Assembly: GCA_963702425.1 (NCBI GenBank) | Contig: CAVPCQ010000032.1 | Span: 32,001 to 96,000 of the forward strand | DNA: 64,000 nt | Origin: an uncultured Acidobacteriota bacterium | GTDB lineage: Bacteria; Acidobacteriota; Polarisedimenticolia; J045 | Reading direction: 5' to 3' | Shown: one piece after another, positions 17,824 to 19,541 of the stretch | Numbering within the stretch: position 1 is the stretch's first letter | Layout of the letters: the number at the start of each line of letters is the position of its first letter | Notes under the pieces: model-generated | What the model was told of the DNA's origin: nothing | Databases searched by the model: none | Seen by the model: only the letters and a program-made list of their open reading frames with translations | Translations under genes and position numbers: made by a program

Positions 17824-18549
17824 CTAGGGCAACCGGTTCCCCGCGTCGGCCAGGATTGCGGCGATCAAGAAACCCTGGTTACGGTAGTACCGCTCAGGGT
17901 GCTTCGGGTCGGGGACCCGCTGGTTGTGCAGGGCCACCACGTTGAACCGATCGTCGAGGACCGGCGAGCCCGAGGTCCCGTAGTCGGTGTCCGTCTGGTA
18001 CTGGACGAAGTTGTCCTTGACCGCGCGCACCTTGTTGTCGCGGAACGCGATCTCCTGGTGGCGCCCCTGCGGGTACTGGATGATGTTCACCCGTTCGTTG
18101 AAGCGGATCCTCTCGCCGTGGCGCGGGTTGAAGAAGCCCCACACCTCAGCCGCCTTCTTCCCGCCCTTGGGTTTGACCTTCACGATCGAATAGTCGAGGG
18201 CGGGGTTCGTGTAGAAAAGCGCGTCCGGATCGCAGGTCCATTCGTCGACCGGGGCGTCCGTGCCGTCGGCGAGCTTGCGGTAGTTGAACTGGAGCTTCGC
18301 GGTCCGAGCGTCGGCGGCGTTCTCGAATACATGATTGTTAGTCATGAAGGTGTCGGGGCCGACGAGAAAGCCGGTCGCGGAACCGCCTTGCAGGACCACT
18401 CGGGCGACCGAGCGTGCCGCCCGGACGGCGCCCTCGAGCCACCACACGGCCGTGAAGTTGGGCTCTCCGATGACTGCTTCGAGGCCTCCGGGCTCTTCCT
18501 TCCATTCGAATCCCGGCCCCAGGCCCGTCGTCAACCAGTTAGACTTCAT
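17824..18549 (-). CDS. Trypsin-like serine protease with very short pro-peptide, divergent from the gasdermin
   Basis: ATGF, MTNNHV, LDYSI, TDYGTSGSP, VALH; GGLEAVIG near the N-terminus. Confidence 0.9.
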   Translation of the reverse strand: MKSNWLTTGLGPGFEWKEEPGGLEAVIGEPNFTAVWWLEGAVRAARSVARVVLQGGSATGFLVGPDTFMTNNHVFENAADARTAKLQFNYRKLADGTDAPVDEWTCDPDALFYTNPALDYSIVKVKPKGGKKAAEVWGFFNPRHGERIRFNERVNIIQYPQGRHQEIAFRDNKVRAVKDNFVQYQTDTDYGTSGSPVLDDRFNVVALHNQRVPDPKHPERYYRNQGFLIAAILADAGNRLP

Positions 18550-18764
18550 GTCGCACCCCCTTTCGGTCGCGGCAACGCACAACGCGATTGCGGTGCCGGA
18601 CCGACGGTACATGCTCGCGATGGCGATCCGGCGGACCGCGGCGAGACCACTTTTGAGGCGGCGTGGCGGTGGTCAGTATATGCTGATGGCGCGCGCCGCG
18701 AGTGGCTCCTTGATCGATCCAAGCGGTGACGGGGGATTCCAGACGTAACAGGGGAGGACAAGAC

Positions 18765-19541
18765 ATGAGCTGCAATGATCCGTACCTCAAGGAACTTCGT
18801 AGCAAGGGCTACAACGTCGTTCGTTTGCCGAAGGCCGACATCCGGCCCCTGCAACTGCTCACCAAACGAGGCGATACGCTCGATCGAATCGGAGAGTTGG
18901 CGACGGTCCTTCCGGCCAGCAACGTGCCGATGCCTCCCGTCACGGCGGACACGCGCGTCGCGAGCCTCTCCGGTGTGCGCTCGGGCGAACTCAGCCTCGG
19001 ATTCGGGCTTTCGATTCTGGGGAGCATCATCGGGGCGATGGGCGGCTCCAAGCTGGGCCTCGATCTCACCTACAAGAGCGCCAAGAGCGTCACCTTCGAG
19101 TTCGTCGACGTTCTCGAGGATCGGATCGAGATCGCGAAGCTCGACCAGTATCTGACGAGCGCCGACGTCAGCCCCTTCTCTTCCTTCGTCGCGAAGCTGC
19201 TCGAAGCCGACCAGCTCTTCGTCACCACCGCCACCGTGAAGAGCAACAAGATCTCGGTGGAGTCCAACGGCGCGGGCAACGCCGGAGTGGACGTGAGCAT
19301 CCCCGAGATCAAGCAGGTCGTGGGGGCGAACGTCAAGGTCGGCGGCGGCTCCGACAGGTCGTCCAAGGTCACGTTCGAGGGCCCGATGCCCCTGGTCTTC
19401 GGCTTCCAGGCGGTGCGTCTCTTCTACGAGGGGGGGCGGTACCAGCGCTTCAAGGTCCTGAGCGGCGGCGCCGCGCTCGAGGCGGTCGCGGCGCCCGAAC
19501 TCCTGAGCGAGGGCGCCTTCGTGAGAATGCTCGACGTGTGA
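18765..19541 (+). CDS. bGSDM: Bacterial gasdermin (258 aa)
   Basis: GGGGAGG RBS; MSCNDPYLKELRSKGYNVVRLP with Cys3, LFVTTATVKS, LVFGFQAVRL, short C-terminal tail ending EGAFVRMLDV; closely resembles the Runella and Vitiosangium gasdermins as I recall them. Confidence 0.92.
   Translation: MSCNDPYLKELRSKGYNVVRLPKADIRPLQLLTKRGDTLDRIGELATVLPASNVPMPPVTADTRVASLSGVRSGELSLGFGLSILGSIIGAMGGSKLGLDLTYKSAKSVTFEFVDVLEDRIEIAKLDQYLTSADVSPFSSFVAKLLEADQLFVTTATVKSNKISVESNGAGNAGVDVSIPEIKQVVGANVKVGGGSDRSSKVTFEGPMPLVFGFQAVRLFYEGGRYQRFKVLSGGAALEAVAAPELLSEGAFVRMLDV

Follow-up and report, generated by a model that had tools for sequence, protein, structure and literature searches.

Bacterial gasdermins (bGSDMs) studied so far are activated by cleavage of a loop, and the inhibitory peptide of the Bradyrhizobium and Runella proteins corresponds to their last 16-21 residues (Johnson et al., 10.1101/2021.06.07.447441). 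The sole mapped cut of a bGSDM found in the literature searched, that of the Runella protein, lies between Leu and Gly (10.1101/2021.06.07.447441). In relatives of the Lysobacter CARD-NLR system, phospholipase effectors occupy the place of the gasdermin, and the first protease of that system is dispensable and its role unexplained (Wein et al., PMC10312443). Proteolytic cascades among multiple trypsin-like peptidases have been predicted (Kaur et al., eLife 2020, PMC7159879). Here, we describe a gasdermin locus in a 64,000-nucleotide stretch of DNA (the window) from an uncultured Acidobacteriota bacterium (contig CAVPCQ010000032.1, positions 32,001 to 96,000), in which a gasdermin gene on the plus strand and the gene of a 241-residue minimal protease on the minus strand diverge from a 215-bp spacer. 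The composite reading favored here, to which we give a probability of about one half, is that the gasdermin is cut after Glu239 by Glu-specific trypsin-fold proteases of the surrounding genomic island, the minimal protease plausibly being both a substrate and a cutter.

The ORF (open reading frame) at 18765-19541 is a genuine bacterial gasdermin, as a preliminary description of the sequence had proposed. It matches the PADLOC bGSDM profile PDLC02986 with E=3.8e-79 over 226 of 257 profile positions; no match was returned by the local copy of Pfam, and those listed of its 464 homologs at E<=1e-3 carry PF26164. Its AlphaFold2 (AF2) model, with a mean per-residue confidence (pLDDT) of 70.9, was aligned by Foldseek to the Vitiosangium bGSDM (7n51, E=4.8e-23, TM scores 0.83/0.81), to 7n52 and 7n50 (Runella and Bradyrhizobium gasdermins) and, more weakly, to mammalian gasdermins. 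The frame is open on the plus strand from 18726 to 19541, and a start at 18726 was rejected on the N-termini of the homologs, since M-x-C-x-D-P begins most of the 120 listed; the start consistent with them is the ATG at 18765 (MSCNDPY). The N-terminal Cys announced earlier is present at position 3 from this start, and a palmitoyl group on C3 has been described for the Bradyrhizobium bGSDM (Johnson et al., 10.1101/2021.06.07.447441).

Residues 231-246 and 248-258 of the gasdermin are modeled with pLDDT below 50, and Leu238-Glu239-Ala240-Val241 falls in the first of these stretches; low confidence here agrees with the flexibility of the cleavage loop in studied gasdermins. Leu-Glu is kept across the close gasdermin clade and is followed by A, K, R or S; neither Lys nor Arg occurs between residues 231 and 253 of the protein of the window. 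By sequence position, a cut after Glu239 would leave the 19-residue tail expected from the preliminary description (A240-V258). By analogy with the studied bGSDMs, these last residues (about 19) are presumed to be the inhibitory peptide; F252, inside the GPFVR motif, is invariant across 44 aligned homologs.

The minimal protease is encoded in a minus-strand ORF at 17824-18612. A start at 18612 was likewise rejected on homolog N-termini: MK.(H/N)W stands near the start in 120 of 120 listed homologs, which places the start at the ATG at 18549, and a record identical to the resulting 241 residues exists (P0121). The 21 codons above this start (18550-18612) are open, would encode a hydrophobic stretch ending in Cys and are open in the related locus L082 as well; this extension is probably untranslated spacer. 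Both genes lie where they had been placed before, with the correction that their likely starts (18765 and 18549) fall inside the ORFs first given.

Pfam assigns the protein to Trypsin_2 (5.9e-22), the Trypsin and Trypsin_2 matches covering residues ~70-228, and the only other match is an overlapping Peptidase_S7 of 18 bits, below the cutoff of 20. The AF2 model has a mean pLDDT of 85.6 and reaches a Foldseek probability of 1.00 with many S1 structures, and the catalytic triad H73, D119 and S193 is invariant in 33 aligned homologs. Residues 1-33 are predicted to be disordered, residues 22-27 having pLDDT below 50, and the N-terminus does not resemble a signal peptide. The claim of a minimal trypsin-like protease without a sensor domain is borne out by the intact triad, the trypsin fold, the restriction of the Pfam matches to protease families and this predicted disorder. 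When the PDB was searched with the profile of the protease family, V8 ranked best (E=1.2e-11), followed by Esp, the Spl proteases, exfoliative toxins and the Bacillus glutamyl endopeptidase. Foldseek ordered its matches as the FAM111A domain, then Esp (pro-Esp included), V8 and exfoliative toxins; the best of them is the serine-protease domain of human FAM111A (8s9k, E=6.9e-14, TM score 0.68).

His213 together with Ser or Thr190 is mandatory in glutamyl endopeptidases, and Lys216 acts as a charge compensator in exfoliative toxins (PMC5508998). In an ungapped HMMER alignment to V8, the invariant T188 and H208 of the minimal protease correspond to chymotrypsin positions 190 and 213, an assignment made by alignment only, and the nearly invariant R211 is aligned to position 216. 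A new N-terminus produced at a Glu-Ala junction of the protease might also serve to offset the Glu charge. The larger trypsin-fold proteases found next to gasdermins likewise have Thr at 190 and His at 213 when aligned to V8. This pocket pattern, together with the nearest solved relatives, suggests that the minimal protease probably cuts after glutamate. Among the described enzymes, Glu-SGP processes its own precursor at Glu(-1)|Val1, and the S1 pocket of V8, BIGEP and Esp is complete only after removal of the propeptide (PMC5508998).

The preliminary description had also pointed to GGLE|AVIG near the start of the protease, where LEAV occupies residues 23-26 and is preceded by GG. Of 120 homologs compared (52-100% identical, mostly 249 residues long), 110 have Glu at the position of Glu24 and 104 have Ala at that of Ala25. 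The position ahead of the Glu is variable (V in 44, L in 29, F in 12, others in the rest), and Glu-Ala is followed by V/I, I/L, G/D, any residue, P, N and F/Y. Glu-Ala-(V/I)(I/L)G resembles the new N-terminus of the IVGG type. The same edge motif, hydrophobic-Glu-(A/K/G)-hydrophobic-hydrophobic-G, has Glu in eight of nine trypsin domains compared and Gln in one. In most of the larger trypsin-fold proteins it precedes the GTGFL strand by ~35-40 residues (by ~59 in the protease at 8293, which has AALEAIV ahead of its catalytic domain), and in the larger proteases of the window and of related loci it is internal, separating the N-terminal from the catalytic domain. Because a Glu-specific enzyme would here meet a near-invariant Glu in a flexible linker, followed by hydrophobic-hydrophobic-Gly, the Glu-Ala stretch looks like a zymogen activation junction.

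When metagenomes were scanned with the gasdermin alignment, 80 loci were kept. The arrangement of the window recurs in L082, whose gasdermin is 85% identical to that of the window; there, the minimal protease has PGGLEAVIG, the gasdermin AALEKA and the patatin PAGLESA, so that Leu-Glu is kept in all three and the following residue varies, and a TPR-S-type trypsin lies just downstream of the minimal protease. In L017, from a distant lineage, a gasdermin with ALEAV and a minimal protease with PLEAVIG are 5.6 kb apart, and the minimal protease is again next to a TPR-S-type trypsin. A JGI contig of 19,908 bases is recorded for the protease homolog P0124 (79%) and likewise for the gasdermin homolog P0032 (70%), so the two may share one contig. 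Homologs of the TPR-S trypsin of the window (9472-11148), whose family usually neighbors gasdermins of this clade, adjoin gasdermins in L017, L082, L086, L087, L088, L097, L120, L126 and L164. The gasdermin loop contains Leu-Glu in all ten loci with a trypsin-fold protease beside the gasdermin, that is, in these nine and in the window. No minimal protease occurs in the fetched stretches of L097 and L120.

Other gasdermins have other neighbors. Lys or Arg occupies the aligned loop place in L098, L101, L104, L109 and L118, all of which adjoin Peptidase_C14, fused to TIR in L104 and to NACHT/NB-ARC and TPR in L118. L110, with an Arg placed differently, is also beside Peptidase_C14, which brings this family to six of the ten neighbors scanned. 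L136 has a subtilase neighbor and, with no Lys or Arg at the aligned place, a Lys six residues downstream; one Arg-loop gasdermin is beside a CHAT protease, the single subtilase and CHAT cases being among L136 and L159. The remaining two of the ten neighbors are an EAD1 protein and a TIR-NB-ARC-WD40 protein. No protease was detected by the family profile in the short flanks of the E-loop gasdermins of L090/L091, L092, L094, L096 and L105; the neighbor in L091, the only one of these scanned with Pfam, is TIR-NB-ARC-WD40 without a protease. Across these loci, which were chosen by flank length and are related rather than independent, the loop residue tracks the protease class, and this fits that alignment column being the residue directly before the cut (P1).

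The motif recurs in a third gene. The patatin-like phospholipase that converges with the gasdermin gene carries GGGLEAV (residues 368-374) ahead of a conserved C-terminal helix, and LEAV is found in a disordered stretch of gasdermin, minimal protease and patatin alike. The patatin family has this conserved helix behind a variable linker, and the linker contains LE[AST] in 17 of the 17 closest homologs (P0241-P0257). The sequences fit a C-terminal peptide removable by a protease. Distant homologs within the set P0241-P0360 have other short linker motifs, SFG(L/I) in many, and it looks as if patatin clades were matched to different proteases. The gasdermin-patatin pair is the same in L082-L085, the upstream flanks of L083-L085 being too short to judge the protease. 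Gasdermin and patatin almost abut in the window and in L082; in L081 (798-2020) and L085 (662-1941), whose gasdermins are 95% identical to that of the window, a stretch of ~1.2 kb with a minus-strand ORF of ~390 residues separates them. In the GH108 lysozyme of the island, which travels with these gasdermins, hydrophobic-Glu-(Ala/Ser) is present in six of six sequences (window, L086, L087, L094, L105 and L115), in a variable linker before a conserved tail of ~25 residues (DFGxxGY.AK.PD.G.DP.YD). A TLE|V site in the same protein was rejected, since its Glu is not kept in L086, L087, L094 and L105; the kept Glu is four residues upstream.

Residue shuffles indicate how often such sharing would arise by chance. 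Among the shuffles, 0.7% had LEAV somewhere in the protease, 1.6% had some four-residue word common to a 35-residue tail and a 40-residue head, and 0.045% had LEAV in both protease and patatin; the three of 17 neighborhood proteins that contain LEAV are encoded by three adjacent genes, with 0.39 occurrences expected in 6607 residues. Because these figures are post hoc, conservation is relied on for the motif.

Identities, folds, gene neighborhoods and the motifs with their conservation are observed; that the proteases prefer Glu, where the two cuts fall, in which order the steps run and what triggers them is inferred. In the scheme proposed, the gasdermin would be made as an inactive cytoplasmic pro-toxin whose last ~19 residues clamp the pore-forming body, as in the studied bGSDMs. 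A cut of the disordered loop at Leu-Glu239|Ala would allow the protein to insert into the membrane and kill the cell. The candidate cutters are the island trypsin-fold proteases with the S1 pocket pattern of glutamyl endopeptidases, the 241-residue protease among them. The flexible 24-residue N-terminal segment of the latter ends in the Glu-Ala junction, at the place where zymogens of the chymotrypsin family are cut; this junction might be cleaved by the minimal protease itself or by a sensor-coupled protease, for example the TPR-S trypsin beside the STAND NTPase. Once activated, the minimal protease would cleave the gasdermin at Leu-Glu|Ala, and probably the patatin at the same code. It plausibly acts as an amplifier or executioner, a role that is unproven; that it is an executioner switched on by upstream initiators, as had been suggested, is possible, and a direct cut of the gasdermin by the TPR-S protease is equally compatible with the observations.

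An extended form of this scheme, which we consider unlikely as a whole, is a caspase-like cascade of Glu-specific trypsin-fold proteases leading from sensor initiators through an executioner with nothing but a prodomain to several lytic pro-effectors. As initiators, equipped with sensor or adaptor domains, the TPR-S trypsin (together with the STAND NTPase) and the protease encoded at 26.3-27.0 kb would cut the executioner at its conserved Glu-Ala junction. The effectors held back by C-terminal peptides with the Glu code would be the gasdermin (pores), the patatin (lipid breakdown) and perhaps the GH108 lysozyme, which has no signal peptide and would reach the cell wall via the gasdermin pores.

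The context of the protease family was examined in one genome per species with the family alignment, 80 loci being kept with flanks of up to 8 kb (3-4 kb in some). The family, of ~249 residues, is solitary in many phyla, including Proteobacteria, Bacteroidota, Cyanobacteriota, Desulfobacterota, Acidobacteriota and KSB1 (L001-L028). No recurrent neighbor was found around the 27 closest family loci, the largest real cluster of neighbor ORFs in an all-against-all clustering comprising five loci; two larger clusters, of 18 and 15 loci, were discarded as artefacts, since they consist of ORFs antisense to the protease gene. The neighbors include methylases, Cas10, transposases and integrases.

Several observations weigh against a dedicated role of the minimal protease and against a cut after Glu. 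A bGSDM occurs in the fetched flanks of just one of the 80 genome loci of the protease family (L017), and no Pfam or PADLOC family is found in more than four of 125 neighbor ORFs of the close loci. As the family is mostly without gasdermin linkage, the LEAV of the protease is an old family feature and not one that co-evolved with this gasdermin; of the motif sharing proposed earlier, its presence in flexible regions of both proteins stands and its specificity for the pair does not. In L086-L088, where sister gasdermins with 77-81% identity have the same loop, the fetched stretch contains a TPR-S trypsin but not a minimal protease, which argues that the small protease is dispensable for activation in that clade. 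The first 24 protease residues are themselves conserved (W5, F14 and W16 invariant) and are as compatible with regulation or docking as with a propeptide that is removed. The non-independence of the loci compared reduces the weight of the loop-protease correspondence, and the alignment of Glu-type with Lys/Arg-type loops can slip by one residue. Position 189 of chymotrypsin is matched in the alignment by the invariant Asp187, an atypical residue for a glutamyl endopeptidase, and by analogy with the Ile and Leu cuts mapped elsewhere P1 may be Leu238.

The first of these points lead to a reading that is possible, if clearly less probable than the favored one: the TPR-S trypsin (9472-11148) and the STAND NTPase alone switch on the gasdermin, and the 241-residue protease is a passenger of the island with other substrates, its LEAV being a family-wide edge motif. 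Gasdermins are adjoined by homologs of the TPR-S trypsin in nine fetched loci and by the minimal protease in two to three, and L097 and L120 join L086-L088 in having no minimal protease in the fetched stretch. The edge motif is conserved whatever the context, 79 of the 80 protease-family loci have no gasdermin in their fetched flanks, and the Lysobacter system requires just one of its two proteases (PMC10312443). However, minimal protease and gasdermin are divergent neighbors in L082 as well, the protease clade seen with gasdermins is the closest one (79-100% identity), and the hexamer GGLEAV is common to protease and patatin, where any shared six-residue word arose in 0.4% of shuffles. In the window, moreover, the TPR-S trypsin is 7.6 kb away from the gasdermin with five genes between, and the STAND gene is in two frames.

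If, instead, protease, gasdermin and patatin formed a self-contained module, the protease would activate itself at Glu24|Ala25 and be restrained by its expression level or by an unseen inhibitor rather than through a protease acting before it. A second trypsin-like protease is nearby in two of the 27 close family loci and in two of all 80 genome loci, so that activation in the family cannot generally depend on a neighboring initiator, and autocatalytic processing at Glu(-1)|Val1 is established for Glu-SGP (PMC5508998). We nevertheless regard this as improbable at this locus, as a protease free to activate itself beside a gasdermin would kill the cell, no candidate for an inhibitor emerged and the island is rich in sensor-type proteins. 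Least likely, with only a slight chance, LEAV would not be a cut site at all, the protease being specific for Lys/Arg or for a hydrophobic P1 (Leu238) and the gasdermin being cut elsewhere or by another protease. Residue 189 is the determinant of Lys/Arg specificity in trypsin, and Asp187 aligns with it; all four residues of LEAV are frequent in this GC-rich proteome. P1 is Leu in the Runella gasdermin (10.1101/2021.06.07.447441) and Ile in HamA (PMC12799240). Yet the conserved position in the protease family is Glu, with the residue before it (P2) varying (V, L, F, A, I and others), the gasdermin loop offers no Lys or Arg and changes its residue with the protease class, and His at position 213 is invariant. 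On balance, cleavage after Glu239 by Glu-specific proteases of the island remains the reading that we prefer.

The coordinates of the locus and its surroundings are collected in Table 1. The host assembly has 5.1 Mb in 42 contigs and is 91% complete and 5.85% contaminated, and the GC content of the window is 65-75%. The gasdermin was absent from all 22 further genomes of its order that were searched, and of 400 genomes sampled across the phylum two contained it; because of this rarity the island is considered accessory. An upstream operon encodes, in this order, the trypsin-fold protease at 8293-9468, the TPR-S trypsin and a DUF4062/TIR-like NB-ARC protein with a TPR array (Pfam). The gene of the latter, the STAND NTPase, is one base short near 13084 compared with the consensus of a 126-bp repeat (8.2 copies, 93% matches), in the first repeat unit; the frame change may be an assembly error in the repeat or a real frameshift severing the sensor from the TPR array. 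In total, four trypsin-fold proteases besides the minimal one, and the STAND NTPase, are encoded within the window. The fifth trypsin-fold protease, at the left end of the window (128-1102), is of V8 type (ALE-SIIGPTDDR, GGQSGAP, GIHAYG); it is followed by two ORFs resembling subtilases at 1485-3008 and 3110-3811. Other island genes encode the GH108 lysozyme, a secreted PGDYG-like protein, an HExxH protein, two TIR proteins and a CAP12-type TIR protein, and several island modules reappear reshuffled around related gasdermins.

Table 1. Features of the gasdermin locus and the surrounding island (window coordinates)
Feature	Position	Strand	Basis or remark
Trypsin_2 protease with N-terminal helical region	8293..9468	+	Pfam 8.9e-16; PADLOC PDLC03010 2.6e-40, full length
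TPR-S + Trypsin_2 protease, 558 residues	9472..11148	+	Pfam TPR-S 7.7e-13, Trypsin_2 7.5e-18
DUF4062/TIR-like + NB-ARC STAND NTPase + TPR array, two frames	11073..14176	+	Pfam
GH108 lysozyme without signal peptide	16536..17159	+	Pfam; Glu-Ala/Ser site before conserved C-terminal tail
Stand-alone trypsin-fold serine protease, 241 residues, V8/Esp-like (S1B-like)	17824..18549	-	Pfam, triad, AF2, Foldseek
Leu23-Glu24-Ala25-Val26 of the protease, proposed activation junction Glu24|Ala25	18472..18483	-	GG precedes; conserved, disordered
Divergent intergenic region	18550..18764		215 bp between protease and gasdermin starts
Bacterial gasdermin, 258 residues	18765..19541	+	PADLOC bGSDM, homolog starts, AF2 and Foldseek
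Cys3 codon	18771..18773	+	Read directly; position palmitoylated in the Bradyrhizobium bGSDM
Leu238-Glu239-Ala240-Val241 in gasdermin loop, proposed cut Glu239|Ala240	19476..19487	+	Disordered, Leu-Glu conserved
19-residue C-terminal peptide A240-V258, presumed inhibitory	19482..19538	+	Holds conserved G-(P/A)-F-V-R motif
Terminator-like hairpin	19561..19575	+	Between convergent gasdermin and patatin; weak: 2 such sites in region vs 2.2 expected
Patatin-like phospholipase, 399 residues	19581..20780	-	Pfam Patatin 7.1e-29; convergent with gasdermin
LEAV of the patatin, residues 371-374	19659..19670	-	Within GGGLEAV, residues 368-374
Trypsin-fold domain of a further island protease, TLEKVV at N-terminal edge	26266..27004	-	hmmsearch, family profile, 2.9e-18

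A common regulatory element in the divergent spacer was considered and dropped. No sigma-70-like site was found in the spacer, and over the aligned stretch 18530-18790, which comprises the spacer with ~20 bp of coding sequence on either side, window and L082 are 86% identical, a value not above that of the coding sequence and no higher than close relatives would be expected to show.

Published work already includes gasdermin-protease pairs, multi-protease STAND systems and their phospholipase effectors, as well as predictions of peptidase cascades. A Glu code common to a zymogen and its effectors was not found in the literature searched: no paper joining 'bGSDM' and 'glutamyl endopeptidase' was found in a search that covered neither the supplements of Johnson et al. 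and Wein et al. nor the Nature 2025 version, and these supplements may bear on the novelty. If the Glu reading is true, a large gasdermin clade would have a cleavage code open to mutation, Leu-Glu|small residue, and there would be a rule pairing the loop residue with the protease class (Glu with trypsin-fold, Lys/Arg with caspase-like proteases). The reading would also assign a testable role to the 'extra' protease of multi-protease gasdermin systems and present patatin phospholipases as pro-enzymes unlocked by proteases. Caspase cascades, too, have an executioner with a short prodomain and one residue common to the sites cut in zymogen and substrates, and this parallel would be interesting in evolutionary terms. 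Should the Glu reading fail, the locus would be one more gasdermin island.

A comparison with described systems places the individual components. In the work of Tuck et al. (Science 2025, PMC12799240), a trypsin-like protease likewise unlocks a separate inactive effector by cutting a disordered insert; unlike here, the effectors are nucleases, the mapped cuts follow Ile and the protease is fused to the sensor. The accessible parts of PMC12799240 and PMC7159879 describe no Glu code and no gasdermin or patatin pro-form. With the glutamyl endopeptidases (V8, Esp, BIGEP, exfoliative toxins and Glu-SGP; PMC5508998) the minimal protease shares Thr and His at 190 and 213, a basic residue at 216 as in exfoliative toxins, and an N-terminal segment that ends in Glu before hydrophobic-hydrophobic-Gly, like Glu(-1)|Val1 of Glu-SGP. 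It differs from them in its low identity of ~20%, in being cytoplasmic (no signal peptide) rather than secreted, in the Asp at 189 and in an extra helix (residues 35-45) before the first strand.

The systems of Johnson et al. (Science 2022; 7n50, 7n51 and 7n52) resemble this locus in a gasdermin of ~260 residues with an N-terminal Cys, an inhibitory peptide of ~20 residues, a flexible loop and an adjacent protease gene. The Runella gasdermin is cut after Leu247 by a caspase-like (CHAT) protease, whereas the partner here is trypsin-fold and V8-like and the conserved loop residue is Glu; in addition, the adjacent protease here has no repeat or NACHT domain. The Lysobacter CARD-NLR system (Wein et al., PMC10312443) shares two consecutive trypsin-like proteases followed by a STAND ATPase (window 8293-14176) and a gasdermin effector. 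No CARD-like chain was matched by the two operon proteases in a search of sequence against the PDB only, and Pfam gives TPR-S in the second. In contrast to the Lysobacter system, the second protease here has TPR-S, the STAND protein has a DUF4062/TIR-like N-terminus, and the gasdermin is outside the operon, being located 4.6 kb downstream of it beyond five genes in mixed orientations. A third protease, the minimal one, is additionally encoded here next to the gasdermin, and gasdermin and patatin are both present at the same locus.

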